The notes under the pieces: generated by a model
What the model saw: only the letters and a program-made list of their open reading frames with translations
Told to the model about the DNA's origin: nothing
Databases searched by the model: none
Shown here: piece by piece, positions 5,146 to 41,415 of the stretch
Numbering within the stretch: position 1 is the stretch's first letter
Layout: every line of letters begins with the position of its first letter
Position numbers and translations under genes: made by a program
Source: Patescibacteria group bacterium
GTDB taxonomy: Bacteria > Patescibacteriota > Microgenomatia > UBA12405
DNA: 64,000 bases
Assembly: GCA_050943115.1 (NCBI GenBank)
Contig: JBMNON010000004.1
Coordinates: 2,447-66,446, forward strand
Direction: 5' to 3'

Positions 5146-5681
5146 AAAAAATAATCAGATACATTATCCCGGTATTTTTACTTATAGTTTTACTTTTTCT
5201 AGTTGTCCGGTCCCAAGATAGTTCTAAAGATACTCCGGAAAGCAACAACTTGACGACAGAAAATCAATTAATTTTGCCTGAATCCTGGTTTTACTCAGAA
5301 GATAATCAAGGTGCGACTCTAAAGATTGAAAAGCTTTCGGACAATGATGTCAGACCGGGAATTATCTTATTAGAATCCGATCTGCCGCCTGAGATTACTC
5401 CAAAAACTTACGTTGATAATTTAATAAAAGGTGCCCGCTCCACCCTTCCCAGTCTAAAAATTATTTCCGATAAAGAATCTGTTGAAAACTATTATCTCCG
5501 AAGTTTTAATTCCAGCTACACTATTAATGGTCAAAAAATAAATATAATCCAAAGAATATACGTAATCGACTCGCAGGTTTATACCCTTACAGCTTCGTAT
5601 CTCCCCGTGGAAGCCAGTATAGAATCCGATGTCGAGCAGATTTTTAATTCCATTTTTCAGTCCGAAATCATTTCCAATTAA
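5142..5681 (+). CDS. Membrane-anchored hypothetical protein, translationally coupled to the sortase gene (ATGA overlap).
   Basis: N-terminal TM segment [15 protein letters not shown] followed by a ~150-aa extracytoplasmic domain. The 4-nt overlap with the sortase stop suggests co-expression. Confidence 0.45.
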
Positions 5682-11817: not shown

Positions 11818-13431
11818 ATGAACATTAGGCAACGGCTTACCGTTTATACGACACGCCGGCAAAGCAGTATTCTTTCAGCTTCTATTGTTTTGGCTGTTAC
11901 CTTTGCCATATCGGCTGCCCTAGGTTATCTCCGGACCCGCTTTCTTTACGGCATGTTCTTTAAATGTTGCGCTTCTGAGTTGGATGCCTACAATGCTGCT
12001 TTCCGCTTACCGGATTTAATATTCAAGCTTTTAGTAACTGGCGCCTTATCAGCCTCATTCATTCCTGTATTTTCCGGCTATCTTCACAAAGATCCCAAGC
12101 AAGCCAACAAAATTGCCTCAACGGTAATAAACCTCCTATTTCTAGTTTTTATCGGTGCCGCCATAACACTTTTAATGTTTACCCGCCCCTTATCTGAACT
12201 CATTGCTACCGGTTTTACTTCAGAACAATTTGATTTAATGGTCAACCTTACCCGGATACTTTTGACCGCCCAAATCTTCTTCCTCATTAGCAATTTCATC
12301 ACGGCCATACTCCAAGTAAATCAGATTTTTCTCATTCCGGCCTTTTCTCCTATCGTCTACAACTTATTTATTATCCTTAGCATTTTCACGCTCGCCCCCC
12401 GCTTTGGTTTATATGGGGTTGCTTATGGTGCTGTTGTTGGTGCCTTTTTCCACCTGGCAATACAAATACCAATTGCTAGGCGAGTTGGATTTAATTATTC
12501 CTTGGTTGCCGATACAAAACTAAAAGGGGTCAGGGAAGTTGTTAGGTTAATGATCCCCCGCAGTTTGTCTTTGGGCTTAGGTGAAATTGAGAATACTGTT
12601 ACCTTATTCTTTTCCAGCACGCTTGCCGTTGGTTCCTTTTCCTTACTTAACTTAGCAATGCAACTTATATATCTCCCCTCCAGGATTTTTGGGACTACAG
12701 TAGGTCAAGCGTCATTACCGATTCTGTCGAAAAATATCGCCAGAAATGAGCTTAACACCTTTCGTCAAACCGTCAACAAAACTCTCCTTCAAAGTTTATT
12801 CATCTCACTTCCCATCGCCACGCTTTTGTTGATATTACGCCTGCCGGTAGTGAGAATTGCCTACGGATCAAGGCAATTTCCATGGGAAGCCACCGTACTT
12901 ACCGCCAAAACTCTGGCTTTCCTGACACCGGTTATAGTTTGCCAGGCTGCTATCCAAATCCTTGTTAGGTCCTTTTATGCCCTCCACAACACCAAAACTC
13001 CTCTACATATCTCGACCATTTCACTGCTTACAAACATTATCCTAAACTACACCTTTATAAAATTAACTGATCTTGGAATAATGGGGTTGGCTATCAGTTC
13101 GTCGGTAAGCAATATTATCCAGGTGTCCGGATTGATGTTTCTGTTTATCAAAAAAGTCGACGGCTTCAACTGGCTTTCAACCTTCAAATCGGCATTTAGA
13201 ATATTTATTGCTTCCTTAGCCGCGGGAGCGTCCACTTGGATGGTGTTCAAAGGTTTGGATCTTTTCTTGCTAAACACCAGCAGAACCATCAACGTTCTAT
13301 TGCTGCTCGGTTCCACCTCTGCCATAGGCGGTTCCATTTATCTGATTTTAGCTCACCTACTTAATATCGAAGAATTCGCCGAATATAAAAAGTATTTCCT
13401 GAAAACCAAGCGTTTTATTTCCGCCAAATAG
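11818..13431 (+). CDS. murJ: Lipid II flippase MurJ/MviN.
   Basis: About 14 TM segments; N-terminal FRLPDLIFKLLVTGALSASFIPVFS is the MurJ signature region; 537 aa. Confidence 0.85.
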   Translation: MNIRQRLTVYTTRRQSSILSASIVLAVTFAISAALGYLRTRFLYGMFFKCCASELDAYNAAFRLPDLIFKLLVTGALSASFIPVFSGYLHKDPKQANKIASTVINLLFLVFIGAAITLLMFTRPLSELIATGFTSEQFDLMVNLTRILLTAQIFFLISNFITAILQVNQIFLIPAFSPIVYNLFIILSIFTLAPRFGLYGVAYGAVVGAFFHLAIQIPIARRVGFNYSLVADTKLKGVREVVRLMIPRSLSLGLGEIENTVTLFFSSTLAVGSFSLLNLAMQLIYLPSRIFGTTVGQASLPILSKNIARNELNTFRQTVNKTLLQSLFISLPIATLLLILRLPVVRIAYGSRQFPWEATVLTAKTLAFLTPVIVCQAAIQILVRSFYALHNTKTPLHISTISLLTNIILNYTFIKLTDLGIMGLAISSSVSNIIQVSGLMFLFIKKVDGFNWLSTFKSAFRIFIASLAAGASTWMVFKGLDLFLLNTSRTINVLLLLGSTSAIGGSIYLILAHLLNIEEFAEYKKYFLKTKRFISAK

Positions 13432-13448
13432 TTGTATATACTGTTTAT

Positions 13449-14015
13449 ATGAAACCCAAAAAAGAGATTTCTCTTTTGCCGGATGAGATGGACCTCAACT
13501 CACCTTCTGCCCGTCTTTTACGCTGGATTACAACTGTCGGCCGTGTTGTCATAATTGCAACCGAACTGGTTGTTATCGGTGCTTTTCTCTCCCGGTTCTA
13601 TCTTGACAGAAAAAATGCCGATCTCTCTGAGGTAATAAGACAGCAAAGAGCTATATTGGATAGTACCAAAGAGTTTGAAGATGACTTTACTCAGCTACAA
13701 ACCAAGTTGTCCACGATAAAAAAGGTTTATGCCGCCACCCCAGCTTATGATGAAAAAATTAGCGATTTAGTTACTAGTACCCCCCTCGATATCAGATATG
13801 AAAGTATGTCTATCAAAAAGTCCGATACGAATACGATTTCTGCTGACATCGAACTGATAGCTTTCCAGGAAGAGTCGATTGTCAATTTTATAACCAATTT
13901 AATTCTTAGCCCTTCCATGGATTCTGTCAACATTCGGACCATCAAGAAAAATTCAAAAGAAAACTTTTATAGGGTTACAATAGCCTTGGTTTTCAAAAAG
14001 GATCAGCCAAAATGA
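13449..14015 (+). CDS. PilN-like bitopic membrane protein (candidate type IV pilus/competence assembly component).
   Basis: Short cytoplasmic N-terminus with ISLLPDE (compare the PilN INLLP motif), one TM, a predicted coiled coil and a ~100-aa periplasmic domain; 188 aa. No pilM is visible upstream, so the assignment is tentative. Confidence 0.4.
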   Translation: MKPKKEISLLPDEMDLNSPSARLLRWITTVGRVVIIATELVVIGAFLSRFYLDRKNADLSEVIRQQRAILDSTKEFEDDFTQLQTKLSTIKKVYAATPAYDEKISDLVTSTPLDIRYESMSIKKSDTNTISADIELIAFQEESIVNFITNLILSPSMDSVNIRTIKKNSKENFYRVTIALVFKKDQPK

Positions 14016-14650
14016 ATTTCACTGAAACCCTGAAAACCCAAAAAATTCACCGCTTTGTAAAAAAGCAAAGAGAAAATAAAAAATTTCTCAAGTCACTGGA
14101 GTTAAGCGGTACTTTTTTCCTTATTGCCTTTTTTGGTTTATTTGCAATAAAACCGGCAATCACAACAATTTCCGGCTTGGTCGGGGACATTAAGGCTAAG
14201 GAACAGCTCACAGTAAAATTAAGGGAGAGGATTAAAAATATAATACAAGCTCAGGAAAATTATGCCCTTATCCAGGAGAAGTACAGCGTAATCGAATCTA
14301 GCCTTCCCGAAGGTTATCATTTTTTTAACTCTTCTAGCCAATTCCGGGCCTCCTTCATTGAGCAAAATGTCGCTTCTGACAGGTTGGTATATGGCTTTTC
14401 TGACACCCAAAAGCAGTCAGTTAAGAATCTACAAGCCTACAATATAAAGACCGGTGGTCAGGCCGATTTTTCACAAATAGTCGGTTTTGTCGACAAGATA
14501 CTTGGTGTCAGGAGATTGATGGATATTGATCAAATTAACTTTTCAATTGAAAAGGATGCCTACGCTGGCAGCCAAAGTGAAGCTAGCGCATCAGGTGGTT
14601 TGAAATTTAATATCAATGCCGATGTTTTTTACTGGGAGGAAGAAAAATGA
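14012..14650 (+). CDS. PilO-like bitopic membrane protein.
   Basis: Basic cytoplasmic N-terminus, one TM (LSGTFFLIAFFGLFAI), coiled-coil segment, C-terminal periplasmic domain; 212 aa. Overlaps the upstream gene by 4 nt. Confidence 0.35.
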   Translation: MNFTETLKTQKIHRFVKKQRENKKFLKSLELSGTFFLIAFFGLFAIKPAITTISGLVGDIKAKEQLTVKLRERIKNIIQAQENYALIQEKYSVIESSLPEGYHFFNSSSQFRASFIEQNVASDRLVYGFSDTQKQSVKNLQAYNIKTGGQADFSQIVGFVDKILGVRRLMDIDQINFSIEKDAYAGSQSEASASGGLKFNINADVFYWEEEK

Positions 14651-14940
14651 ACAAAGAAAAAACTTCATCGTATTTGATATTCATTTCAATTTTTACTTTC
14701 CTCACCGTCTTCACCCTGCTTATTCAAAAAAGTTATGAAAATTTAATCAAACCCACTCAAAACCTTGGCACCAACGAAAATATTACTCCGATGAATCCGA
14801 ACCTGGACATGACTGTTCTGGATGAAATTGAAAAGAGGGAAGATCTGCGTGTCGAGGATATAGACATGGGATTGCTTCAGGAGCTTGTGCCAACTCCGGA
14901 TTCTACCGATACAGGTACTCAATCAGTTAGGCTTCAATAA
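14647..14940 (+). CDS. Small single-pass membrane protein with acidic C-terminal tail.
   Basis: N-terminal TM (YLIFISIFTFLTVFTLLI); coupled (4-nt overlap) to pilO-like and followed 2 nt later by the large surface protein. Confidence 0.4.
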   Translation: MNKEKTSSYLIFISIFTFLTVFTLLIQKSYENLIKPTQNLGTNENITPMNPNLDMTVLDEIEKREDLRVEDIDMGLLQELVPTPDSTDTGTQSVRLQ

Positions 14941-14942
14941 CC

Positions 14943-16292
14943 ATGCGACAAGAAAAAAGGATACCGACACTCTTAGGACTGATCCTTCTCGTTCTATTTA
15001 TATTTGGAGGCGTTAGCCTAACCAGAAAAACAACATCTCTCAATACAAAAGCTAGTAATCCCTGTAAACCAATCAACCCCCAAGTAACCAACATTACCAA
15101 CAACTCCGCCGATATCTCTTTTCTAACAGAGTCCACTTGCTCATCAGCAATTATCATTACCGACAGGACAATTACTAACTTTAGGGAAAACAGCCAGGTG
15201 CACTACTTTCAGATAACTAGTTTACAAACCTCTACTGACTATACCTTTTCTTTCTTAATAAACGGCAACCGGCAGGAAAGCAGTAATTACAAATTTACAA
15301 CTGCCGGACAGCCATCAGGCAACATGCCCACATCAAACTTGGCTTGGGGAAAAGTTTATACCCCGGATCATCAACCGGCAATTGACGCTATCGTTTATCT
15401 AAATATTCCGGGGGCTTCTCCTCTGTCTTCTCGGGTTACGTCAAACGGATATTGGAATATCTCATTGGCTACTAGTTTTGATATTAATCAGAACACCTGG
15501 TTCACTCCGCCGGAAAACATAGAGGAAGATATCGTCGTACTTTACCCCAACTCTCCTCCGACCCAAATCACCAGTAGCACATCAAGAAACAATCCGGTAC
15601 CTGATATCATAATCGGTCGCAACTCATTTTCTTCAGTTAGCGCCAGTGGCGAAGAACCACCCGGTGTTATAGATCTTCCCGATCCTGGAGCTGTCCAAAT
15701 ACCCCTTGATATTATCAACCCCAAAAATAACGAATCAATAAATACCCAAAAACCCGATTTTTTTGGTAGCGGACCGGCAAATACCGTAGTCGAAATTCAG
15801 GTTGAATCACCCCAAACATTTACCGGCCAAGTCCACATAAATGATGATGGATCATGGAATTGGTCTCCTCCTGAAAATTTGGAGCCGGGAGAACATACAA
15901 TTACTGTTACTGCTACTGACCCCGAAACTGGTTTGGTAGAAACAGTCAAAAGAAGATTCGTTGTTCTGGCGGCTGATAACGACAACCTTGCCTTCACCGC
16001 TTCACAATCAGCCAGTCAAGCTAGCCCTACTCCGACAACAATACCCACCCCAACAGCCAAAGTTAGTAGCGCGAGTCCGTCTCCAACTCAAATACCAACT
16101 GTAACACCAGCAACAATTCCCACCAAAAAACCGGATGCACCAACACCAATTCCATCTATTACTTCTTCTAGTTCCGGCACCCAATCCAGCTTACTCGAAA
16201 GCGGACAGACCACCCCTACTTTACTTACTTTCATTGTTTCTACATCCCTGATTGGTCTTGGTTTAAGGCTGTTAAGGAAAACAAGTATTTAA
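14943..16292 (+). CDS. Large cell-surface protein: signal peptide, FN3-like and Ig-like (Big) domains, Pro/Thr/Ser linker, C-terminal TM plus basic tail (LLRKTSI).
   Basis: N-terminal hydrophobic signal. The segment ...NITNNSADISFLTES...YTFSF is FN3-like beta-sandwich, and PGEHTITVTATDPETGL is Ig-like/Big. PTPTTIPTPTAKVS is a linker, and the terminal hydrophobic stretch plus RLLRKTSI resembles a sorting-signal layout without LPXTG. Confidence 0.6.
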   Translation: MRQEKRIPTLLGLILLVLFIFGGVSLTRKTTSLNTKASNPCKPINPQVTNITNNSADISFLTESTCSSAIIITDRTITNFRENSQVHYFQITSLQTSTDYTFSFLINGNRQESSNYKFTTAGQPSGNMPTSNLAWGKVYTPDHQPAIDAIVYLNIPGASPLSSRVTSNGYWNISLATSFDINQNTWFTPPENIEEDIVVLYPNSPPTQITSSTSRNNPVPDIIIGRNSFSSVSASGEEPPGVIDLPDPGAVQIPLDIINPKNNESINTQKPDFFGSGPANTVVEIQVESPQTFTGQVHINDDGSWNWSPPENLEPGEHTITVTATDPETGLVETVKRRFVVLAADNDNLAFTASQSASQASPTPTTIPTPTAKVSSASPSPTQIPTVTPATIPTKKPDAPTPIPSITSSSSGTQSSLLESGQTTPTLLTFIVSTSLIGLGLRLLRKTSI

Positions 16293-16325
16293 AACTCGAA
16301 AATTTTCCTCTAAACTAACAATATA

Positions 16326-17369
16326 ATGCTTGTTCGTAAATATCTTTATGCCATTTTTACTATAGTCTTTTTCTCGCTATCACTCGTCGGTACCCTTTAC
16401 TTGGTTCAAAGAAATCAGGATATTAGGGACAGGGCTGAGGGTTGTCCTGAATGTCAGGAATGGAACGGTAGTTCTTGTTACTGGGATTTTAGCGGAGGAG
16501 GCGATGACTATTACATCCGATGTTGTTGCGCCCACCCTGATATATGTTCTGAGAGCGACGATTGGATGCAAAATTATTGCCAATCAAGCCCGGACGAATG
16601 TACCGTCTATCACCAAGGATCTTGTTTTACTGTAGAAAATTGCCAAGGTGAACAGGTTCAAAGATTTCACAAAAACTATACTGGTACGTCCGATAATTAT
16701 GATCAGGGTTTCTGCGGAACAACTGAAAATCCCGAATCACGCATAACTGTTCCCGATAATAACCAACATACTTATTGTGCTAACGCCAATCCTTGCGAGT
16801 GCGCCCAAATCGATCACCACTTCGACGGTGCTGGTGTCGATGGACCTGGAGGTGTCTGTGAGTGTAAAGCTTGTCCTCCACCCACCAATCCTCCTACCCA
16901 AATTCCTACAACCCCACCCACCAATACACCTACTCTGACCCCCACTAAAACTCCCACCCCTACAGCCACTAAAACTCCGACTCCTACTGCCACCAAGACT
17001 CCCACCCCAACCCATACGCCCACTCCCACCAAAACTCCGACTCCTACTGCCAGCAACACCCCGCCTCCAGGATCTACTCCGACCTCAACTCCTATTCCTA
17101 CAAACACGCCCACTCCCACCAAAACTCCAACCCCTGTCCCCCCATCTGGCACGCCCGCTCCAAGCAATACTCCTGCTCCCAGCAATACCCCAATACCGAC
17201 CCTGGTTATTGCCCAAAATACACCCGTTCCTACCGACGCCCCTGCAATAGCTCAGGCTCCCAGCCCAACTACAGTCACCTTGCCGCAAGCTGGCGTAGAC
17301 CTTCCGGTAAAGATAATCGCCGTTGTCGGTACAATTATCACATTGTTCGGCTTTTTGATATTATTATAA
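16326..17369 (+). CDS. Cys-rich secreted protein with long Pro/Thr linker and C-terminal LPQAG motif followed by a hydrophobic anchor; candidate sortase substrate.
   Basis: About 24 Cys in the first 190 aa (CPECQEW, CCCAHPDIC, CECKACPPP). A 130-aa PT repeat region (TPTPTATKTPTPT). C-terminus TLPQAGVDLPVK-IIAVVGTIITLFGFLILL. The CECKACPPPTNPPT junction mirrors [13 protein letters not shown] in the sortase. Confidence 0.6.
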   Translation: MLVRKYLYAIFTIVFFSLSLVGTLYLVQRNQDIRDRAEGCPECQEWNGSSCYWDFSGGGDDYYIRCCCAHPDICSESDDWMQNYCQSSPDECTVYHQGSCFTVENCQGEQVQRFHKNYTGTSDNYDQGFCGTTENPESRITVPDNNQHTYCANANPCECAQIDHHFDGAGVDGPGGVCECKACPPPTNPPTQIPTTPPTNTPTLTPTKTPTPTATKTPTPTATKTPTPTHTPTPTKTPTPTASNTPPPGSTPTSTPIPTNTPTPTKTPTPVPPSGTPAPSNTPAPSNTPIPTLVIAQNTPVPTDAPAIAQAPSPTTVTLPQAGVDLPVKIIAVVGTIITLFGFLILL

Positions 17370-17370
17370 T

Positions 17371-18303
17371 TTGATGACTACATCTTTAAGGGTTAATCTT
17401 CTTTCTCTGATAGAAGCGCTACGTCCGGTTCAGTGGATTAAAAATTTAAATTTATTCGCCGCCGCTATCCTCAATGGTCAGTTAACAAATGCTGAAGTCT
17501 TTTTTAAAAGCCTGGGTGCTTTTATTGTCTTTAGTCTTTTATCATCTTCTTCCTATTTGATAAATGATCTTGTTGACATTAACAACGACAGGAACCACCC
17601 TGTTAAAAAAAACCGCCCATTGGCCAGGGGTGACGTCTCTGAATCACTTGCCATCTTTACTGCCTTCCTACTGCTTATCCTGGGCTTATTCCTGGCAATG
17701 TTTATCAACCCTGGTTTTCTGTTTATATCCCTTGTGTTTGTTTTTCTTCAATATACATATTCTCTGGTCCTAAAAAAGAAGGCTATCCTCGATATTATCG
17801 GTATTGCTTTTTTCTTTATCCTAAGGGCATATGCTGGTGAAATTGCTACCGGTTACCATTTACCCGTATGGATAATGTTGACGGTAATTTTTCTCTCCTT
17901 GTTTATCGCAAGCGGTAAAAGACGCAGCGAGCTTGTGAATACCGGTTCCAAAACCAGAGCCGCTCTAAAAGGTTATGGTACTTCTCTTCTTAACTTTTAC
18001 ACTACCATGTTCGGCGTTTGCACCCTTATCACATACGCCATGTTTACCTTTCTGGAAGAGCCTGTCAGATTTCAAGGACTAATTCATAATTTTTTGCTGG
18101 AAAATTTTCCGGCAGCGCTTGACCGCAAGTGGTATATGGTAACGCTTCTTCCGGTGATATTTGGTATTATGCGCTACGGCCAGATTATCTTTGAAATGCA
18201 GGAAGGGGAGAGGCCTGAACGGGTTGTTGCTACTGATATCCCGCTTCTGATGTCCATCCTCGCATGGGGTCTAATGATAATCACCATTATTTATGTTCTT
18301 TAA
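17371..18303 (+). CDS. UbiA-family prenyl-phosphate phosphoribosyltransferase, decaprenyl-phosphate 5-phosphoribosyltransferase (DPPR synthase)-like.
   Basis: LRPVQWIKNLNLF, first Asp-rich motif YLINDLVDINNDRNHPVKKNRPLARG (NDxxDxxxD) and second motif in a polytopic membrane protein; 310 aa. The pattern matches the Rv3806c-type subfamily rather than quinone UbiA/MenA. Confidence 0.7.
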   Translation: MMTTSLRVNLLSLIEALRPVQWIKNLNLFAAAILNGQLTNAEVFFKSLGAFIVFSLLSSSSYLINDLVDINNDRNHPVKKNRPLARGDVSESLAIFTAFLLLILGLFLAMFINPGFLFISLVFVFLQYTYSLVLKKKAILDIIGIAFFFILRAYAGEIATGYHLPVWIMLTVIFLSLFIASGKRRSELVNTGSKTRAALKGYGTSLLNFYTTMFGVCTLITYAMFTFLEEPVRFQGLIHNFLLENFPAALDRKWYMVTLLPVIFGIMRYGQIIFEMQEGERPERVVATDIPLLMSILAWGLMIITIIYVL

Positions 18304-19891
18304 GAGAAAAAATATCTTCGGGTATCTTTCTTGTGCATTGTTACTGCTGGCCTTATTAACTCGTTTCTATAAATTGGACTGGGGTGACGGCTACTTTTTT
18401 CATCCTGATGAAATGAATATGGCTGTAGCCATAACTAGGTTTTCCACCCACAACCTTGATCCTCACTTTTATGCCTATGGCCAGTTCCCTTTATATCTTA
18501 CATATTTTTCCATCAAAACCTTCAATTTTATATCTAATGCCTCTTTCACTTCTCCTGTTAGCTTAGAAAGTGCCGTCTTTGGACTTAGGATTTGGTCTGC
18601 CCTTTTCTCACTTGCTTCCCTACTTCTTCTCTATCGTCTCTCTCGTCTTCTTTTTCCCGATAAAGTTTCTCCCCGGATATTCGTCTTATTACTCATTTTT
18701 ACACCCGGACTTATACAACTTTCCCACTTTGGTACTACTGAATCGTTTCTGTTTTTTGTTTTTTGTTTCAACCTTCTCATTGCTGTAAAGATTTTTGAAA
18801 AGTTTAAGTTAACCAGTCTTGTCCTGGCTGCTTTTATTAGCGGTATTGCTGTTGGTACAAAAATCAGTGCGATAATTATGTTCGGTCCCGTTCTCTTGTC
18901 GTTATTATTGACAACGGTAAAGACAAAAAAAATCGCTTATTATATCCTCCGAAACCTAATTTTCTTTCTGGTGGTGCTTTTAACATTTAGCCTATCTTCT
19001 CCTTATAACCTTGTTAACTTTAATGATTATAAATCCGCTCTTAGTTACGAAACCGCCGTCGCTCTGGGTCACATGAAAGTCTTCTATACTAATCAATTTT
19101 TGGATACAAAACCATACTTGTTTCAGTTACAAAAAGTATTCCCCTACACTCAGGGAATATTTATTTTTTTGCTTTCGGCACCTGGTTTAGTTCTGCTTAT
19201 AAAGAAAATGAACCACAAATGGTTATTAATCCTGCTTCCTTCGTTTGTTTACTTTCTTTACAATGGTCAGCTTTATGTCAAATGGACCCGTTTTATGTCC
19301 CCTCTCTTTTTCCTCCCTCCCCTGCTTGCCACCTATTTTTTTAGCCATCTTCGTTCAAAAACCTTAATCGTTTCACTCATAGCTATCTCCATTATTCCCG
19401 GTGTCTTCTTTTGGACAAGCAGATTTGAAACCGATGTCCGCCTCAAGGCGTCTGATTGGTTTATCGATAACATCCCTGCAAATACCAAGATATTGTCCGA
19501 GTCAGGCAATGTAATTAATATCCCCCTTGCTTCCGTTCCCTATGATGTTAACAATTTCGACTTTTATGTTTTGGAAAATAATCCCCTGCAGCTTGAGTTA
19601 CTATCAAAAGAGCTTCGGCTATCTGAGTACATCATCGTTCCCTCAAGAAGGGTTTTTAAAAACCAGCAGGGAGATAGGTTCCCCACCAGCCGGAAGTACT
19701 ATGAGGCTTTGTTTTCAGGTGACTTGGGGTTTGTGGAAATTAAAAAGTTTGAGCGGAACAATTCCTTTTTACTTAACTCAGAAGATGCAGAAGAAACCTG
19801 GTCCGTGTTTGACAATCCTACTATTAGAGTATTTAAAAAGTTTAACCATTTATCCCTGGAAGAGTATAAAAAAATTCTTGGCGCCACATGA
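18293..19891 (+). CDS. GT-C fold membrane glycosyltransferase (GT39/PMT-ArnT-like), copy 1.
   Basis: About 11 TM helices; first extracytoplasmic loop carries the HPDE(MN) acidic motif typical of PMT/ArnT-type GT-C enzymes; large C-terminal soluble domain; 532 aa. Confidence 0.65.
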   Translation: MFFKRKNIFGYLSCALLLLALLTRFYKLDWGDGYFFHPDEMNMAVAITRFSTHNLDPHFYAYGQFPLYLTYFSIKTFNFISNASFTSPVSLESAVFGLRIWSALFSLASLLLLYRLSRLLFPDKVSPRIFVLLLIFTPGLIQLSHFGTTESFLFFVFCFNLLIAVKIFEKFKLTSLVLAAFISGIAVGTKISAIIMFGPVLLSLLLTTVKTKKIAYYILRNLIFFLVVLLTFSLSSPYNLVNFNDYKSALSYETAVALGHMKVFYTNQFLDTKPYLFQLQKVFPYTQGIFIFLLSAPGLVLLIKKMNHKWLLILLPSFVYFLYNGQLYVKWTRFMSPLFFLPPLLATYFFSHLRSKTLIVSLIAISIIPGVFFWTSRFETDVRLKASDWFIDNIPANTKILSESGNVINIPLASVPYDVNNFDFYVLENNPLQLELLSKELRLSEYIIVPSRRVFKNQQGDRFPTSRKYYEALFSGDLGFVEIKKFERNNSFLLNSEDAEETWSVFDNPTIRVFKKFNHLSLEEYKKILGAT

Positions 19892-21588
19892 TCAAAAAAG
19901 AAAAAATTTTATTATTGCTTATTATCATTCTGGCAGCAATATTAAGGTTTACCGGTCTTAATTGGGATCAGAATCAACATCTTCACCCCGATGAAAGATT
20001 TTTGACAATGGTTGCCGATGCCATCAAAATTCCCCAAAGTTTTTCAGATTACCTCGACCCTCAGTTATCCTCTATGAGTCCCTATAATAAAGGATTTGAC
20101 TTTTTTGTCTATGGCACCCTCCCTCTCAATTTAACTAAAATCTTGGCAGTCAACTTCGGCTTCGACGGCTATTCAAAAATATATTTACTTGGCCGTCTCT
20201 TATCTTCGTTGTTCGATCTCTCTACTTTGCTTTTAACGTATATTATTTGTAAGAACTTGTTTAGCAAAAAATCCGCCCTCTTTGCTGCTCTGGCTTATTC
20301 TCTGATGGTGCTGCCGATTCAGCTGTCACATTTTTTTACTGTTGATACTTTTCTTAACTTTTTCATGGTTTTAACATTCTATTTTCTTGTAAAAGCTGCC
20401 GACAAACCCCGTCTGTTATATTTCCTGGGATTGTCTTTTTCCTACGGACTTGCCCTATCCTCAAAAGTTTCTGCCCTGTACTTTCTACCCATAATTGGGA
20501 TATTCTTTTTATTTATTTTATTTAAAGGGAAATGGTCCGGCAGCACTCTTTTCTTGATGATGATCGCATTGCTTAGTACCGCAATTAGCTTTCGACTTGC
20601 TCAGCCCACAGCCTTTGCCCAGTCTTCTTTTTTAAACTGGCAGCCAAATGAACAATTTCTCGGTAATTTAAAAACTCTCAAATCCATGGGTAATATCGAC
20701 TCCTGGTTTCCGCCTGATGTTTATTGGATTTCTCGTCAATCAAAACTTTTTGCACTTGAGCATGTAACAATGTGGGCACTGGGAATACCTCTCGGTTTAC
20801 TCTCGCTAATTTCTCTTCCTTTTTCTACCTACCGCATCATTCGTACCACAAATCTCCATCCGTTTAAAAACTCCAAGACCTTCTCGATACTGTCAATAAT
20901 AATTTGGGTTGTTTTTCTCTTCGTTTATCAATCCTTTCAATTCACCAAAAACCTGCGTTATTTTTTAATTATTATGCCCTTTCTTTCAGTCCTTGTTGGG
21001 TATCTGCTTGCCTCTTCCGTAAAACATTTTCAAAAATTTATTCCATCCAAACTCTATTTGGGCATTATTATCATCCTTGTATCAATATGGCCTCTTTCAT
21101 TTATCTCTGTCTATCTTAGACCTCACAGCCGCATTCTGGCCTCATATTGGATTTACGAAAATATTTCCAAAGGATCTCAATTAACCTGTGAACATTGGGA
21201 TGATTGTTTGCCCCTGAATATCAGCTCCAGCCAAAATCCATCCGTTTATGAAATAACTCAGCTCAACCTTTATGATCCTGAAAGCGAAGAAAAATGGCAA
21301 AACATAAATTCCGTATTGGCTAATTCCGACTACATGGTAATTACCAGTAATCGCCTCTACGGTTCTATTCCCTTTGTCAGCAACCGCTATCCCCTAACTA
21401 CTGAATTTTATGAAAAACTTTTTGGTAACCAATTAAATTTCACAAAAGTAGCTGAATTCCACCCAAAACCTTGTTTTCTTGGAATAGAATCCCCTCTGAC
21501 GTGTATAAACGATGAATGGGCCGAGGAATCTTTCACCGTTTACGATCACCCCAAAGTTCATATATTCAAGAAAATTAGCCTTCAATAA
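19888..21588 (+). CDS. GT-C fold membrane glycosyltransferase (GT39/PMT-ArnT-like), copy 2 (paralog of the upstream gene).
   Basis: Same architecture and the same loop-1 motif (HLHPDERF). 566 aa; 4-nt overlap with copy 1. Confidence 0.65.
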   Translation: MIKKEKILLLLIIILAAILRFTGLNWDQNQHLHPDERFLTMVADAIKIPQSFSDYLDPQLSSMSPYNKGFDFFVYGTLPLNLTKILAVNFGFDGYSKIYLLGRLLSSLFDLSTLLLTYIICKNLFSKKSALFAALAYSLMVLPIQLSHFFTVDTFLNFFMVLTFYFLVKAADKPRLLYFLGLSFSYGLALSSKVSALYFLPIIGIFFLFILFKGKWSGSTLFLMMIALLSTAISFRLAQPTAFAQSSFLNWQPNEQFLGNLKTLKSMGNIDSWFPPDVYWISRQSKLFALEHVTMWALGIPLGLLSLISLPFSTYRIIRTTNLHPFKNSKTFSILSIIIWVVFLFVYQSFQFTKNLRYFLIIMPFLSVLVGYLLASSVKHFQKFIPSKLYLGIIIILVSIWPLSFISVYLRPHSRILASYWIYENISKGSQLTCEHWDDCLPLNISSSQNPSVYEITQLNLYDPESEEKWQNINSVLANSDYMVITSNRLYGSIPFVSNRYPLTTEFYEKLFGNQLNFTKVAEFHPKPCFLGIESPLTCINDEWAEESFTVYDHPKVHIFKKISLQ

Positions 21589-22708
21589 TTTCTCTAAAAC
21601 TGTTTACGGTTCTGTTCTCCGAGAAAACTTTTTTCATTCTTTTGGAATTATTTGGCCTTTTATTATTTACTTCATTAACTATTGCCCAAGCTAGATTATT
21701 TTTCTCCCTTGTATCAAACAAGGTACCGGCACCACTGATCAGGATTGGCACTCTAACCCCGGGCAAACTACTGGCAACAACCCTAGCTCCACCCAAAATT
21801 GCTTCAGCCTGAACCATTCCAAAAGCTTCGGTAGAATTTGTACTTGGCAATACCAGCAAGTCTATGTTTTTATAAAAATAAGACAACCCTTCATTTGTCA
21901 AAAATCCTAAGTGGCTTACTACTTTTCTGTGCTTATTCATCAACTTGTGAATCCGCTTGATATAATCTATTTCTCCGATTGCATTCTTTGGACCCACTAA
22001 ATAAACCCCCAGATTGTTTCCCAAAGCTTTTCTTATTGGCCTTATCACCTCAAGTAAGCTTTCTATGCCTTTCTCTGCCGACAACCTCCCCACAAAACCG
22101 ATTTTATAAGCTATATCCCTTGTTGCCTTATCTATCAAGTTTTTTTCTTTTTTCAAAACCATTTCTTTACTTAATCTGATTGGTGGATAAACTACTCTGA
22201 CCTTGTCAAGATAACGGGAGACTACCGGCGACAGGGAGGCGTAATCCATGCTTGAACAGACAATAATATCCGCAATGTTGCAACAAAGTTGGTTTATTAA
22301 TTGTAATACCCATTCAATAATCCTATTCACTAAACCACAGGGTAGTCTGACATCGCAGTGATAGATAACTATACTTTTTTTGTTCAATATTTTTGCAGCC
22401 AGCAATAAATAAAACGCTTCAGGTTGGGGGAGGTTGCTTATTACAGTATCGCTTTTACGAACCTCTTGCCATCCCTGCCAAAACCATTTCGGCATTATCA
22501 GTCCCTTACTAAATTTTTTCCAAACTGGAACCCTGACAACTCTAACTCCACCCTCTGATTCTTCAAGTGGCAACTTTTTGTCGTGTTGCGAGGTGATAAC
22601 AGAGATGCAATCACCTTTCTTCCTCAAGGCTACGGCCAGCCTAGACACGTAGACGCTCAACCCGGAAGTGTATGGCAAATAATAACTTAAAGAAAATAAT
22701 ATTCTCAT
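21575..22708 (-). CDS. GT4-family glycosyltransferase (GT-B fold).
   Basis: N-terminal SGLSVYVSRLA-type GT4 start; C-terminal EAFGMVQAEAILGGARVVAS (E-x7-E motif); 377 aa. Confidence 0.75.
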   Translation of the reverse strand: MRILFSLSYYLPYTSGLSVYVSRLAVALRKKGDCISVITSQHDKKLPLEESEGGVRVVRVPVWKKFSKGLIMPKWFWQGWQEVRKSDTVISNLPQPEAFYLLLAAKILNKKSIVIYHCDVRLPCGLVNRIIEWVLQLINQLCCNIADIIVCSSMDYASLSPVVSRYLDKVRVVYPPIRLSKEMVLKKEKNLIDKATRDIAYKIGFVGRLSAEKGIESLLEVIRPIRKALGNNLGVYLVGPKNAIGEIDYIKRIHKLMNKHRKVVSHLGFLTNEGLSYFYKNIDLLVLPSTNSTEAFGMVQAEAILGGARVVASSLPGVRVPILISGAGTLFDTREKNNLAWAIVNEVNNKRPNNSKRMKKVFSENRTVNSFREIIEG

Positions 22709-23250
22709 TAGGCTTCTAGTGATAACGCTGTACCGATACTCTTATCAAACACTTTACATGCTTGGTTATTTTGATGCAGTACCTTTTGTTGTGGCAGCTG
22801 TTTTTTGAGATATTCAACAATCAACTTGTCATCCTCGACAAATATATCCGGTTTTATCCTTTCCAGTACTTTTTTCTTGAATATATGTGGTTGTTCATTT
22901 TTCAAATTCAGATGAATTTCGCAAAATACCTTATCCAATTTTCTTTTTTTCAACCAAAGATGGGTCTCCCTCTCCAGAAAAGAGTATCGGCTGGATATGG
23001 CCACTACATTACACTTCTCTGTTCCGGCAGCCCTTTTAATCAAGTCCAAATTCGCCTTGATTGCTGGTCTAAAAAAATAGATGTGGGATATTTTTCTGAT
23101 AAGTTGTTCTATTCTTGTTCTTGGGAATCGATAGTGCAGCCTTTTTGCCTTGCCTTTAAACAAAAGTTCAATTAAGATTTTTGGTATCAATGGAGGCTTG
23201 TCGATAATAACTCCGTCCAGATCAACCGCCAGCACATACTTTCTCTTCAT
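22708..23250 (-). CDS. HAD-superfamily phosphatase-like protein.
   Basis: Motif I VDLDGVI (DxDxV), motif II VVAISSR, C-terminal K...FVEDD (motifs III/IV); 180 aa. Confidence 0.5.
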   Translation of the reverse strand: MKRKYVLAVDLDGVIIDKPPLIPKILIELLFKGKAKRLHYRFPRTRIEQLIRKISHIYFFRPAIKANLDLIKRAAGTEKCNVVAISSRYSFLERETHLWLKKRKLDKVFCEIHLNLKNEQPHIFKKKVLERIKPDIFVEDDKLIVEYLKKQLPQQKVLHQNNQACKVFDKSIGTALSLEA

Positions 23251-23297
23251 TTTCTTTGATTATAACAGTGCCGATTTTTCTTTGGATATAATAAGCC

Positions 23298-23873
23298 ATG
23301 AATCCATATACTAGCAGAGCCAAAGACTTTTTGTTTTGGCAACCACCACTGGACTACCTGGCCTTATTGTTGTCAAAAAAATTTGGCCGCCAACTTTTCG
23401 TCTTCCTAAATTTTTTTATCTGGCCCTACCTTTTTTACTTATCTGTAATTCTTACCATTACTGATCCAAATATATTCTGGCAAATCTTTATTGCCATGTT
23501 TATAAGTGTTTTTGTCGAATATTTGCTCAAATCTTTGCTCCCTTGGAAGCGGCCCATTACCAAAACCCAAAACTTTCTCCCTTTTGGTATTCATCACCAA
23601 TGGGCTTTAAAGGGCAGTTTTCCTTCGGGGCATACGGCAAAAACACTTATATTCTTTCTTTTTATACTCCAATATGGTGTCCACTCGCCTCTAATTTTTA
23701 TCTTAATAAATGTCCCCCTGGTGTTAGCCCGGATATTTTTGGGATTCCATTATCCGGTTGATATCTTTGGAGGTCTGCTCACCGGTTTTATCTCTTGGCT
23801 TTTTACCCACCAACTCATCTTTCCTTCAGAGTTTACTGATCCACTTCGTGATATATTTAAGCTAGTTTTTTAA
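23298..23873 (+). CDS. PAP2-family (type 2 phosphatidic acid phosphatase-like) membrane phosphatase.
   Basis: All three PAP2 motifs are present: KRP (LPWKRPITK), PSGH (FPSGHTA) and SRx5Hx3D (LARIFLGFHYPVDIFGG). 191 aa with 5-6 TM helices. Confidence 0.75.
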   Translation: MNPYTSRAKDFLFWQPPLDYLALLLSKKFGRQLFVFLNFFIWPYLFYLSVILTITDPNIFWQIFIAMFISVFVEYLLKSLLPWKRPITKTQNFLPFGIHHQWALKGSFPSGHTAKTLIFFLFILQYGVHSPLIFILINVPLVLARIFLGFHYPVDIFGGLLTGFISWLFTHQLIFPSEFTDPLRDIFKLVF

Positions 23874-23875
23874 AT

Positions 23876-25963
23876 ATGATCTCCGACTTAAAATTCATCA
23901 TATTCTGGTGGCTTTCTATCTTTTTGATCTCATCAATTTGTTTACCTCTAGTTCTTAGTATTTTTAAAAAATTTTGGGACAGGGGATACGTTTTTAGCAA
24001 GATACTTTCTCTCGTTGTTCTGACCTATTCTGTTTTTGTTCTTGGAGTCATAAAGTTATTACCCTTCACCAACCTTTCGATTTGGTTTTTAATTTTAATT
24101 TTCTTATCTCTAAACGGACTTTATCTATCCCGTCCCAAAAGGTTCAAAGCTTTTACTGGCTTGATTAAAGAAAACTGGAAAAAATTCCTTTTTGAAGAAA
24201 TTCTGTTTTTGCTCATCTTAATTGTTTGGTCTTTTGTTCGGGGGTTTAATCCTGCAATTGAAGGTTTGGAAAAGTTCATGGATTGGGGTTTTGTCAATTC
24301 AATGCTTCGTTCGGTTTATATGCCTCCCGTTGATATGTGGTTTGCCAATGAACCTATAAACTACTATTATTTCGGTCACCTTATTTTTGCTCTTGTTACC
24401 AAATTGTCAAATATTAACAGTACCATTACATATAATTTATCAATCGCATCCATTGCCGCGCTAACCTTCGTCAGCACTTTCTCCCTTTCGCTCAATCTGG
24501 TTTATTGCTTACTAAAAAAAAGTTCGTTAGCAAAATTAATTCTTGCCGGAACGGTGTCGGCCCTCTTGTTGACTTTCGGTGGCAATCTCCATGCTGTCTA
24601 CAAGATTGGCAGAATCAACATGGACAACAATCAGGGCAAGCTGGTTTTGAATGCAGGTGAAATTCAGAAGGCCGCTTCAGGTTATTGGTATCCTGACGCA
24701 ACCAGATTTATTGGCTTTGATCCCGAAACCAGCGATAAAACCATCCATGAATTTCCTATCTATAGTTTTGTCGTTGCCGACCTTCACGGTCACCTAAATG
24801 ACATCCCTCTTGTTCTTTTCTTTCTGGCCTTTTTGTTCTCGGTATCCCTTTTGCCAAAGCAATTTTCTTCCTGGAAATTACTAATTCCTGCCGGTTTTCT
24901 TTTGTCTATTGCCTATATGACAAATGCTTGGGACATAGCAGTTTATGGTCTCTTTTTCGGTCTTTATGTTTTCCTCTACAAATTACGACAGTATAATTTT
25001 AGGGATTCTCTGGTTAAAACTCTTTTTAATGGATTTCTGGTAATTTTATTCTGGTATTTATTTACTCTGCCTTTTTCACTGAACTTTACTCCGATGATGG
25101 AAGGCTTGCGTTTGTCTGATGCCCATTCACCCTTTTATCAGCTTTTTATACTTTATGGCGGGTTTTGGTTAATCGCCCTACCATTTGTGATTTTCTTTTT
25201 TGTAAAAAATAAATTAAACATTAAGAAAGCCACTCTTTCCGATGTATTTGTTCTCTCCTTACTCATCCTGGCGACACTTCTTATTATTATGCCCGAAGTC
25301 TTTTACATAAAAGACATTTATATTTACGAACACCGGAGAGCCAACACGATGTTCAAACTGGTCTATCAGGCATTTATCCTCTACTCTCTAGCTTCTGGCT
25401 ACATCCTTGTCCGACTCAAGCTGTCTTTGAAAAGAGTGCTTTTCGGGATTTATGCATTAGTTTTTTCTTTGGTTTTTATTTCTCACCTAATTTATCCTTA
25501 CTTTGCAACTAAATCATATTACTCTTTTAAGGAATACCATGGGTTGTGGGGCTTGGACTTTCTTGAAGACAAATATCCGGATAACTATGCTGCCATAAAA
25601 TGGTTAAACGCTAATGTCGAAGGACAGCCCAACATTATTGAAGCTGCCGGAGATAGCTATACTACTTATAACCAAGTATCTATGGCCACCGGATTGCCAA
25701 CTGTCCAAGGCTGGTTGGTTCATGAATGGTTGTGGCGTGGAGGGTATGACCAACCTGGAGCTAGAGCTGAAGAAGTCAAAACTGTCTACGAGTCGACAGA
25801 TATTGAAAAAGTCAAACCTATTCTCCAAAAGTATTCTGTTAAGTATATTTTCATCGGCGACAAAGAGTACGAAAAGTATCCCCAGCTAAACACCCAAAAG
25901 TTTGAAGAAATCGGCGCCAACATTGTTTTTGAATCAGGGAAAACCAAAATATTTCAACTTTAA
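23876..25963 (+). CDS. DUF2298 / Chlor_Arch_YYY-type large polytopic membrane protein (putative GT-C-like glycosyltransferase).
   Basis: 695 aa with about 14 TM helices. NYYYFGH 'YYY' motif in an early loop. C-terminal soluble domain with HEWLWRGGYDQPGARAEEV. Confidence 0.6.
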   Translation: MISDLKFIIFWWLSIFLISSICLPLVLSIFKKFWDRGYVFSKILSLVVLTYSVFVLGVIKLLPFTNLSIWFLILIFLSLNGLYLSRPKRFKAFTGLIKENWKKFLFEEILFLLILIVWSFVRGFNPAIEGLEKFMDWGFVNSMLRSVYMPPVDMWFANEPINYYYFGHLIFALVTKLSNINSTITYNLSIASIAALTFVSTFSLSLNLVYCLLKKSSLAKLILAGTVSALLLTFGGNLHAVYKIGRINMDNNQGKLVLNAGEIQKAASGYWYPDATRFIGFDPETSDKTIHEFPIYSFVVADLHGHLNDIPLVLFFLAFLFSVSLLPKQFSSWKLLIPAGFLLSIAYMTNAWDIAVYGLFFGLYVFLYKLRQYNFRDSLVKTLFNGFLVILFWYLFTLPFSLNFTPMMEGLRLSDAHSPFYQLFILYGGFWLIALPFVIFFFVKNKLNIKKATLSDVFVLSLLILATLLIIMPEVFYIKDIYIYEHRRANTMFKLVYQAFILYSLASGYILVRLKLSLKRVLFGIYALVFSLVFISHLIYPYFATKSYYSFKEYHGLWGLDFLEDKYPDNYAAIKWLNANVEGQPNIIEAAGDSYTTYNQVSMATGLPTVQGWLVHEWLWRGGYDQPGARAEEVKTVYESTDIEKVKPILQKYSVKYIFIGDKEYEKYPQLNTQKFEEIGANIVFESGKTKIFQL

Positions 25964-41116: not shown

Positions 41117-41415
41117 TCAAATACCTGGTTTTAAACCGCTGGCCGATATTTACCCTGTCCTTTCTCATAATATTACTCATATTTGTCTCCTCAGTTCCGC
41201 CTTCGGGTATAACTGCTTACCTCATATTTTTCTTTCTTCTTTTCTCGTTTTTCTTGTCTTTCACATTTATATTTACTCGCCGCATAAAAACAAACATCCT
41301 GATCGCTTTCTTCCTATTATCTGTTACCCTGATGTTTTTCTTTAACCTTGATAATCTGGTTAACATTTTCCTTTTAGCGGCTCTCTTCGTTGCCCTCTAC
41401 TTCTTATCTAAGTAA
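41113..41415 (+). CDS. Small polytopic membrane protein (100 aa), coupled to rmuC.
   Basis: Three hydrophobic helices; 4-nt overlap with the rmuC stop. Confidence 0.4.
   Translation: MIKYLVLNRWPIFTLSFLIILLIFVSSVPPSGITAYLIFFFLLFSFFLSFTFIFTRRIKTNILIAFFLLSVTLMFFFNLDNLVNIFLLAALFVALYFLSK

Follow-up and report, generated by a model that had tools for sequence, protein, structure and literature searches.

Introduction

Lipid-linked pentofuranoses serve as glycosyl donors in several described bacterial systems, with which we compare here a gene cassette built around a UbiA-superfamily protein at positions 17,371 to 25,963 of a 64-kb stretch of DNA (hereafter the window) from a genome of the Microgenomates group of Patescibacteria, or candidate phyla radiation (CPR). 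For this genome, our searches covered the window. The mycobacterial decaprenyl-phosphate-arabinose (DPA) route comprises a UbiA-type decaprenyl-phosphate phosphoribosyltransferase (DPPRS; Rv3806c), a PAP2 phosphatase (Rv3807c), DprE1/DprE2, Rv3789, and the GT-C glycosyltransferases EmbA/B/C and AftA-D, which consume the lipid-linked pentofuranose in a cell-wall setting. In Pseudomonas aeruginosa Pa5196/PA7, homologues of Rv3807c, Rv3806c, and DprE1/E2 (PsPA7_6245-6249) together with a GtrA-like protein and the GT-C enzyme TfpW O-arabinofuranosylate Ser/Thr residues of pilin (bioRxiv 10.1101/2020.04.19.049825). Citrobacter youngae has an Rv3806c homologue that is joined to a phosphoribose phosphatase (PRP) of the HAD type and was shown biochemically to make lipid-phosphate-linked ribofuranose (lipid-P-Ribf) from phosphoribosyl pyrophosphate (PRPP), with farnesyl phosphate used in vitro and undecaprenyl phosphate inferred for the reaction in vivo; flipping is presumably done by a MATE protein, and a GT-C enzyme, the founder of family GT136, uses lipid-P-Ribf directly to add alpha-Ribf outside the membrane (Kelly et al. 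2024, PMC11127046). The corresponding O1/O2 genes are ORF15 (a fusion of polyprenyl-phosphate 5-phosphoribosyltransferase, PPPRS, with PRP), ORF14 (MATE), ORF12 (GT136), and the optional ORF13, a GalE-like epimerase of the short-chain dehydrogenase/reductase (SDR) type whose gain or loss switches between Ribf and xylofuranose (Xylf). The same study associated DprE1/E2 homologues with glycans containing arabinofuranose (Araf), called such systems widespread, and did not mention CPR (PMC11127046).

We propose that the cassette is probably the Microgenomates version of this "three-component" lipid-linked pentofuranose glycosylation. With C. youngae, it has in common an Rv3806c-family synthase, a candidate 5'-phosphatase, a predicted outside-acting GT-C, Ribf as the expected sugar when an epimerase is absent, and an optional GalE-like SDR, carried in the cassette by six relatives of the window; the pairing of PPPRS and 5'-phosphatase that marks a three-component system is found as UbiA, PAP2, and HAD-like genes in one cassette. 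The candidate phosphatase of the window is, however, a separate PAP2 and/or a highly divergent HAD-like protein, whereas that of Citrobacter is a fused PRP domain; there is no MATE flippase gene in the cassette; three GT-Cs of PMT_2 and DUF2298 types are present; and the likely acceptor would be a protein or the cell wall of a monoderm-like CPR cell, as opposed to the O antigen. With the mycobacterial route, the window has in common the pairing of a UbiA-type synthase and PAP2, GT-Cs predicted to consume a lipid-linked pentofuranose, and a cell-wall gene setting, but it lacks DprE1/DprE2, GT-Cs of the Emb/Aft type, and a galactan/arabinan context. The parallel with the DPA route, as drawn in the original prediction, thus holds for the first two steps and fails for the later arabinan machinery. 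As in P. aeruginosa, homologues of Rv3807c and Rv3806c would feed a GT-C, and the pilin of that organism shows that Ser/Thr residues of a surface filament protein can carry O-linked pentofuranose; that system, however, needs DprE1/E2, the GtrA-like protein, and a single TPR-bearing GT-C encoded beside the pilin gene, whereas the window has no epimerase, three GT-Cs and, as candidate acceptors, Pro/Thr-rich proteins with sortase signals and not type IV pilins.

These precedents also mean that the pathway is not, as had been claimed, essentially uncharacterised outside Actinobacteria; the pathway-level interpretation of the original prediction was largely right, and its claim of novelty was overstated. 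In the literature searched, no paper combined the DPPRS name with Patescibacteria, none of the papers listed for UbiA together with CPR terms mentioned UbiA, and DUF2298 was mentioned only in two unrelated papers. What is new here is the CPR setting, the coupling to DUF2298 (a GT-C protein with an oligosaccharyltransferase [OST]-like domain), the apparent interchange of PAP2 and HAD-like phosphatases, the link to Pro/Thr-rich proteins with sortase signals, and a variable accessory slot. A life attached to host cells is assumed for CPR bacteria, whose surface chemistry has hardly been described. If our reading is true, the recently defined PRPP-derived lipid-linked pentofuranose pathway, so far placed in Actinobacteria and in the O antigens and pilins of Gram-negative bacteria, gains a third major setting, the DUF2298 family receives its first functional lead, and specific candidate glycoprotein substrates are identified.

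Gene content of the cassette

All seven open reading frames (ORFs) on which the original prediction was built were found at their positions:

17371..18303, plus strand: UbiA-superfamily polyprenyl-phosphate 5-phosphoribosyltransferase (PPPRS/DPPRS, Rv3806c family), predicted; probable start ATG at 17374
18293..19891, plus strand: GT-C1, PMT_2/PMT-like glycosyltransferase (PMT_2 35.1 bits, PMT 28.8 bits, both above the cut-off)
19888..21588, plus strand: GT-C2, PMT_2-like glycosyltransferase (exceeds the PMT_2 and PMT gathering scores)
21575..22708, minus strand: GT4 Leloir glycosyltransferase, accessory, in the variable slot (Glycos_transf_1 67 bits, Glyco_transf_4 45.8 bits)
22708..23250, minus strand: candidate HAD-like soluble phosphatase of 180 aa (HAD motifs I-IV)
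23298..23873, plus strand: PAP2 membrane lipid-phosphate phosphatase (PF01569 40.6 bits versus a cut-off of 27.2; three motifs)
23876..25963, plus strand: DUF2298/TIGR03662 'YYY' protein, GT-C fold with an OST-like C-terminal globular domain (PF10060 E=6e-96; TIGR03662 483.8 bits versus 300.25)

The UbiA and GT-C1 genes overlap by 11 nt and GT-C1 and GT-C2 by 4 nt, PAP2 and DUF2298 are separated by 2 nt, and the gene preceding UbiA stops 1 nt before it. Operon structure was judged solely from such overlaps and spacing, and the overlapping or abutting start and stop codons suggest units of co-translation. Scans for promoters (43 versus 34.7±5.8 in shuffled sequences) and terminators (21 versus 12.7±3.3, mostly within ORFs) gave a weak excess that is uninformative. 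Since the cassette genes have hundreds to thousands of homologues each and the arrangement is repeated in about 30 related genomes, the genes are real and not chance ORFs.

The UbiA-family protein as a predicted phosphoribosyltransferase

The protein encoded at 17371..18303 matches the Pfam family UbiA (E=8e-25), and its top NCBIfam matches are the three decaprenyl-phosphate phosphoribosyltransferase equivalogs, with 204.4, 180.2, and 168.8 bits. Interleaved among them is the HAD-UbiA fusion family NF006088, which scores 170 bits over its UbiA part. The sole strong match to a solved structure is Rv3806c of Mycobacterium tuberculosis (PDB 8j8j, E=1.9e-39, residues 8-298), archaeal UbiA prenyltransferase structures giving E=1e-7 or worse. 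In the cryo-EM structure of Rv3806c, Mg2+ and ribose are bound by N73 and D77, pyrophosphate by a cluster of R22, K87, R90, K143, and Y138, and phosphoribose is contacted by K28, Y70, Q135, and Y157, the latter four being stated as unconserved in UbiA prenyltransferases (PMC10994848). On the basis of HMMER and a 26-sequence alignment, the ligand residues are identical in the window protein at R17, K23, Y61, N64, D68, K78, R81, Q126, Y129, and K134, while Y157 of Rv3806c is replaced by F, likewise in some mycobacteria. Among the 26 diverse members, down to 30-35% identity, R17, K23, Y61, N64, D68, D72, and R81 are invariant and K78 is nearly so.

It is very improbable that the protein is instead an ordinary aromatic or lipid prenyltransferase of quinone, haem O, or ether-lipid synthesis, in a cassette unrelated to pentoses. 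Such an enzyme would share the fold of the UbiA superfamily and the first Asp-rich motif (N64-D65-x2-D68-x3-D72), but the best conventional (non-DPPRS) prenyltransferase model reaches 52.7 bits against 204 for DPPRS, with haem O synthase, chlorophyll synthase, UbiA, and MqnP lower still. Furthermore, the phosphoribose contacts K23, Y61, and Q126 are kept, and GKRR stands at the position of the second Asp-rich motif. The protein therefore does not cluster with protohaem or quinone prenyltransferases, and its membership in the Rv3806c phosphoribosyltransferase family, put forward in the original prediction, is well supported by sequence, the catalysis itself being predicted.

When 1.84 billion cluster representatives were searched exhaustively, 898 clusters were retrieved at E≤1e-30, the nearest of which are Patescibacteria proteins named decaprenyl-phosphate phosphoribosyltransferase by NCBI or JGI; the same name has been given by NCBI to many of the close relatives. 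These are 72-85% identical to the window protein, the closest named ones coming from Shapirobacteria and Woesebacteria, and membrane proteins of CPR rarely reach such identity, seen here across Shapirobacteria-/Woesebacteria-like genomes, which suggests an important function in the envelope.

The GT-C enzymes and DUF2298

Over their full length, GT-C1 and GT-C2 are paralogous (26% identity, E=1e-27), and both have, with high confidence, a GT-C fold, that is, multiple transmembrane (TM) helices and an acidic motif in the first extracytoplasmic loop. The motif, H-P-D-E, lies just past the first TM helix in both proteins (D39/E40 in GT-C1), and P34-D35-E36 of GT-C2 is invariant in 36 sequences. 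With these folds, the proteins are not unrelated transporters. In structure comparisons, the GT-C proteins scored highest with ALG12 (26.9), AglB (26.6), Pmt4 (26.2), ArnT (25.3), Pmt2 (25.1), and STT3B (24.7), and lower with the mycobacterial arabinofuranosyltransferases AftB (19.3), AftA (18.0), AftD (16.3), and EmbA (10.5). By sequence they are not Emb/Aft-like either, which corrects the resemblance to the mycobacterial route drawn in the original prediction; structurally they are closer to the protein O-mannosyltransferase (PMT), ArnT, and ALG enzymes. They differ, however, from the PMTs (GT39) of Actinobacteria and eukaryotes in lacking MIR domains and in sharing only 13-17% identity with solved PMTs. 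In addition, PMTs use polyprenyl-phosphate-mannose supplied by a GT2 synthase, whereas no GT2 polyprenyl-phosphate-hexose synthase was found in the 64-kb window, where UbiA is the sole synthase of a lipid-linked sugar donor that we found.

For DUF2298, which has thousands of members in CPR, the structure model shows a GT-C fold followed by an OST-like C-terminal domain, and the earlier description of the protein as GT-C-like is thereby borne out at the level of the fold. Its most conserved segments (D35 after TM1; E129...D136-W-G; P150-P-x-D153; N162-Y-Y-Y-F-G167; W271-Y-P-D274...H291-E-F-P; H616-E-W-L-W-R-G622) fall in low-confidence, presumably mobile outer loops of the model. One of them belongs to an invariant stretch at residues ~605-622, T-G-L-P-T..G-W.V-H-E-W-L-W-R-G, which follows the last TM helices at the start of the OST-like domain, also with low model confidence; the WWDYG acceptor-binding motif of STT3, PglB, and AglB presumably sits at the equivalent position. 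In one relative (L085:6208-8520, P0232; also P0236), DUF2298 is fused to a C-terminal peptidoglycan-binding LysM domain within an otherwise standard UbiA-GT-C1-GT-C2-PAP2-DUF2298 cassette.

According to the TIGRFAMs descriptions, the TIGR03662 and TIGR03663 families co-occur in Chloroflexi and Archaea. The window resembles this pairing in that DUF2298 passes the TIGR03662 cut-off and has PMT-like GT-Cs nearby; GT-C2 matches TIGR03663 ('flippase activity-associated protein Agl23') weakly, with 20.9 bits against a cut-off of 126. The link of the pair to a DPPRS-like UbiA protein is an addition of the window that was previously unreported.

Candidate phosphatases

The PAP2 protein contains all three motifs of its family, as had been claimed (KSLLPWKRP, PSGH, and RIFLGFHYPVD, at residues 78, 109, and 145), although the third begins with A and not with the S of SRxxxxxHxxxD. 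With PF01569 above the gathering score, the family assignment is certain and that of the substrate tentative: the best named NCBIfam match is undecaprenyl-diphosphate (Und-PP) phosphatase, with 52.6 bits against a cut-off of 229. We consider PAP2 a candidate polyprenyl-phosphate-5-phosphoribose 5'-phosphatase, i.e. an enzyme in the role of Rv3807c. As simple hydropathy segmentation yielded overlapping segments, topology was judged from K/R counts alone. Five K/R were counted in the N-terminus and another five, with no D/E, in the motif loop 82-116, so that by this crude positive-inside count the active site may lie on the cytoplasmic side, though the indication is weak. A cytoplasm-facing site would suit dephosphorylation before flipping and would also explain why PAP2 can be swapped for a soluble HAD-like protein.

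The HAD-like protein has motifs I (D9-L-D11-G-V), II (S85), III (K124), and IV (D139-D140), which are invariant in six homologues, and no hydrophobic segment was detected in it. It gives sub-threshold matches to several HAD-superfamily Pfam families, and the only match of its profile is the phosphatase region of Pnkp1 (E=0.002). According to HMM searches and Pfam scans of unassigned ORFs, in four related loci (L028, L040, L045, and L047) the HAD-like gene stands directly before DUF2298 and the PAP2 gene is missing, while both phosphatases are present in the window and in L005. The HAD-like protein is thus a possible alternative 5'-phosphoribose phosphatase, and separate PAP2 and HAD-like phosphatases appear to be interchangeable in the pathway.

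Conservation of the cassette among Microgenomates

Relatives were collected by two protein-identity look-ups and one scan of GTDB species genomes (80 loci, UbiA 42-85% identical), for which a 9-sequence alignment served as the query because the 26-sequence one was too divergent, and the loci were compared by BLASTP and by HMMs built from our own alignments. Synteny was counted over the 32 loci of the Shapirobacteria/Woesebacteria type with at least 6 kb downstream of UbiA, the fetched flank being 10 kb. The order in this type is MetRS (minus strand), MurJ, a PilN-like, a PilO-like, and a small TM protein, a surface protein of ~430 aa, in some cases a Cys-rich Pro/Thr-rich protein, UbiA, GT-C1, GT-C2, a variable slot, PAP2, DUF2298, PcrA, FemAB, and GatCAB. 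At least two PMT-like GT-Cs directly follow UbiA in 31/32 loci, GT-C1 adjoining UbiA in as many; the exception, L026, consists of UbiA-PAP2-DUF2298 only. PAP2 is present in 27/32 loci, directly upstream of DUF2298, and a HAD-like gene takes its place in 4/32. DUF2298 lies within the fetched flank in 27/32, the other five having enlarged variable slots that reach the 10-kb edge. The conserved core in about 30 related Microgenomates loci is therefore UbiA, the two GT-C genes, PAP2, and DUF2298, and the recurrence of this pairing ties UbiA genetically to PAP2 and the GT-C enzymes, as was originally proposed.

The slot between GT-C2 and PAP2 holds, from locus to locus, a GT4 (15/32 cassettes), FkbM-type or class I methyltransferases, extra PMT_2 GT-Cs (505-574 aa), DUF362, or an SDR epimerase. 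Because these contents vary, the GT4 and HAD genes, which lie on the opposite strand in the slot of the window and had been counted as parts of the set, are accessory and do not belong to the core. The DUF362 protein (363-371 aa; L003:14382-15473, L004, L047:8872-9987) shows no evident connection with glycosylation. Identity to the window proteins amounts to 63-85% for UbiA, 55-71% for DUF2298, 43-63% for GT-C1, 39-60% for PAP2, and 32-46% for GT-C2; judged by these values, constraint on the donor synthase is tight, and GT-C2 is the fastest-evolving of the five.

Loci of the Levybacteria/Gottesmanbacteria type have a UbiA of 42-50% identity and a different gene order, without PAP2 and DUF2298 beside UbiA in the Levybacteria-type loci. 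In the Levyibacteriota chromosome CP066685.1 (L081:5643-10002), MetRS (plus strand) and TatD are followed by a GT2-like protein (497 aa), a different PMT_2 GT-C (485 aa), a 121-aa ORF that belongs to no family, a Glycos_transf_4 protein (WecA/MraY-like), and UbiA as the last gene of the run, with MurJ (minus strand) and PilN/PilO further on. The same succession of ORF sizes directly upstream of UbiA is seen in L064 and L075. This run hints at a primed wall-glycopolymer pathway using the same donor. The adjacency of UbiA and GT-C is thus kept in a second, independent arrangement, and the link survives rearrangement, also in L026.

We also considered that the cassette genes may be neighbors by inherited synteny, with the GT-Cs and DUF2298 using polyprenyl-phosphate-hexose or diphosphate-linked glycans, PAP2 recycling Und-PP, and the UbiA product serving some other enzyme. 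Such an arrangement would fit the position of the cassette within a long conserved housekeeping block, the identity of the best named PAP2 match, the weak similarity of GT-C2 to 'Agl23', and the gene content beside UbiA in the Levybacteria-type loci. We nevertheless regard it as unlikely, since UbiA-GT-C adjacency persists in two gene orders plus the minimal L026 form, a cytoplasmic HAD-like replacement of PAP2, seen in four loci, does not fit the role of an outward-facing Und-PP phosphatase, the window contains no other donor synthase, and the overlapping or abutting codons suggest co-translation.

Epimerases and the identity of the sugar

In agreement with the earlier statement that DprE1/DprE2 genes are not nearby, the Pfam scan of the window, which outside the cassette covered the ORFs of at least 100 aa taken as coding, revealed neither a DprE1-type (FAD_binding_4/ALO) nor a DprE2-type (adh_short) protein. 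The M. tuberculosis DprE1 and DprE2 queries were validated against PDB, with full-length matches of 1058 and 546 bits to chains bearing the names of these enzymes. When the window and 84 related loci (1.44 Mb) were searched with them by TBLASTN and phmmer, no homologue of DprE1 was found, and a single generic SDR, in L082, was the only other result. As the window is without an epimerase, Ribf is the most economical donor sugar, and polyprenyl-phosphate-ribofuranose, the donor originally suggested, remains the simplest reading.

These searches also bear on a true DPA-type route, in which DprE1/DprE2-type 2'-epimerisation would be encoded elsewhere in the genome and the GT-Cs would be D-arabinofuranosyltransferases, as in Mycobacterium or P. 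aeruginosa PA7. The first two enzymes would be the same, and the sugar-synthesis and GT-C genes of P. aeruginosa are unlinked, so that unlinked epimerase genes could lie outside the window. This route is, however, quite improbable in view of the outcome over 1.44 Mb, the fact that in the survey of Kelly et al. epimerase genes sat with the candidate modification systems for Araf- and Xylf-containing glycans, and the greater structural distance of the GT-Cs from Aft/Emb than from PMT, ArnT, and ALG.

Six related loci (L013, L014, L017, L020, L030, and L031) contain an extended-SDR NAD-dependent epimerase/dehydratase of 340-351 aa (PF01370, E=2e-38), and four of the six have no Leloir glycosyltransferase in the cassette. 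The SDR gene lies between GT-C2 and PAP2 (e.g. L017:15839-16894), and the best NCBIfam match of its product, HpnA, a sugar epimerase associated with hopanoids, is below threshold. The slot SDR parallels ORF13 of C. youngae O2 and, by this analogy, is a candidate epimerase of a lipid-linked pentose.

Upstream genes and candidate acceptors

The original prediction delimited the locus at 17371. The cassette itself was confirmed, but this limit omits the conserved surface-protein genes upstream and MurJ, from which most can be learned about acceptor and context. The features concerned, together with the sortase of the window, are:

11818..13431, plus strand: MurJ, flippase of the MOP superfamily (TIGR01695 murJ_mviN 264.7 bits versus 235.55)
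14943..17369, plus strand: two Pro/Thr-rich surface-protein genes, candidate acceptors (translations, Pro/Thr content, C-terminal signals)
3823-5145: sortase gene, 440-aa product (sortase domain)

The first upstream protein is a 449-aa Big_13 protein and the second a 347-aa Cys-rich protein (16326-17369) ending in LPQAG and a TM helix; their Pro/Thr content rises to 0.50 and 0.78, respectively, in 50-aa windows. Only 3/54 genes of the window encode proteins so rich in Pro/Thr, the third being the sortase itself. In 22 related loci, proteins encoded upstream of UbiA, directly or at most two genes away, have a C-terminus made up of PTRIxLPxxGxxFP and a TM helix or of an [IMV]PxTG-like motif, a TM helix, and K/R. 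Highly conserved across loci, the tail of the Cys-rich protein reads PTR[IV]xLPxxG[VFI][DEN]FP and continues into a hydrophobic helix with LLxL at its end; it comes after the Cys-rich domain and TPTPT repeats. This PTR[IV]xLPxxG tail has the look of a sorting signal, of sortase or exosortase-like type, that is specific to the lineage, and it differs from the [IMV]PxTG and K/R tail of the neighboring protein.

Pro/Thr-rich linkers are classic targets of PMTs in Actinobacteria. The most likely acceptors would be Thr/Ser residues in the Pro/Thr-rich stalks of the upstream sortase-signal proteins. A wall-linked glycopolymer is suggested as an alternative acceptor by the LysM-fused DUF2298, the MurJ and FemAB neighbors, and, in Levybacteria-type loci, the WecA-like gene beside UbiA. 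The sortase is unusual in architecture: a Cys-rich module at the N-terminus and ~130 residues of Pro/Thr-rich linker come ahead of the catalytic domain. This also explains why the GC skew is strongly negative at 4-6 kb and at 16-18 kb.

MurJ is the only flippase-type (MOP-family) gene near the cassette, upstream of UbiA in Shapirobacteria/Woesebacteria-type loci and convergent with it, downstream, in Levybacteria-type loci. We considered it as the dedicated donor flippase, but it passes the MurJ equivalog cut-off, so its simplest identity is that of the lipid II flippase. Between MurJ and the cassette, positions 13449-16292 encode a PilN-like (188 aa), a PilO-like (212 aa), and a 97-aa single-TM protein, followed by the 449-aa Big_13 protein, a run conserved in L001, L003, L005, and most other Shapirobacteria/Woesebacteria-type loci; the PilN/PilO matches are weak or faint and come via Pfam in relatives. 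No type IV pilin or ATPase gene was found near them. The 'Pam pilus' described for CPR in a 2026 preprint does not explain them, as it is encoded by a different operon beside ATP synthase and glycosylation is not mentioned there.

Proposed pathway

Taken together, the data suggest the following steps. On the cytoplasmic face, the UbiA enzyme would transfer ribose-5-phosphate from PRPP to polyprenyl phosphate, with Mg2+ at N64/D68 and a conserved K/R cluster, a step that is well supported by sequence. From its context, the adjacent PAP2 would then strip the 5'-phosphate, as Rv3807c does, to yield polyprenyl-phosphate-ribofuranose; in some relatives the soluble HAD-like protein would act at this point, perhaps redundantly with PAP2 in the window. 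With no epimerase in the cassette, Ribf would be delivered, while the six SDR-bearing related species probably deliver another pentofuranose. The donor would next be flipped outward, for which the neighboring MurJ or the GT-C proteins themselves are candidates. Finally, the three GT-Cs, two PMT-like enzymes with HPDE in loop 1 and DUF2298, would transfer the sugar outside the membrane, their folds being shown and their chemistry predicted. The slot between GT-C2 and PAP2, with its GT4, methyltransferases, extra GT-Cs, or epimerase, is a hot spot of diversification.

Several points weigh against this pathway. The best NCBIfam match of UbiA, NF008978, with its 204.4 bits, is short of the equivalog cut-off of 207 by 2.6 bits. 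The HAD-like protein has no Pfam or NCBIfam match at threshold, and, bearing no detectable similarity to NF006088, it does not qualify as a phosphoribose phosphatase of the PRP type. PAP2 could, given its Und-PP phosphatase match, merely recycle the carrier lipid. No MATE, GtrA, or SMR flippase gene lies in the cassette, and an epimerase or a polyprenyl-phosphate-hexose synthase may be encoded elsewhere in the genome, past the searched window. Much of the synteny in these reduced genomes extends to unrelated housekeeping genes such as MetRS, PcrA, FemAB, and GatCAB, which makes adjacency alone a weak argument. The acceptor is wholly inferred, and a Pro/Thr-rich stalk occurs on the sortase as well, so the trait is not unique to the neighbors of the cassette.

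A more far-reaching proposal, which we put forward as speculation and consider doubtful as a whole, is that DUF2298 is an unrecognised GT-C family that works with the DPPRS-like synthase as an OST-like pentofuranosyltransferase of proteins or the cell wall. In Microgenomates it would coat sortase-anchored Pro/Thr-rich proteins with ribofuranose, as a core surface trait of these episymbionts, and the glycan would be diversified by the hypervariable slot.

Remaining genes and records

Many of the records of related loci (L005, L009, L012-L015, L017, L018, and others) are titled 'uncultured Gammaproteobacteria bacterium', and L014 'Candidatus Methanoperedens sp.'; their synteny is typical of CPR, and the titles are evidently wrong or placeholders. 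In the window, four ORFs of 100-408 aa (32716-33942, 48127-48969, 5142-5681, and 41113-41415) matched no Pfam family at the thresholds applied. Elsewhere, the window encodes housekeeping functions, among them PFOR, SOD, MetRS, PcrA, FemAB, GatCAB, an AddA-like helicase-nuclease, dUTPase, Alr, RmuC, HrcA-GrpE-DnaK-DnaJ, NusA, IF2, PNPase, RNase J, ProRS, FtsK, and AlaRS.

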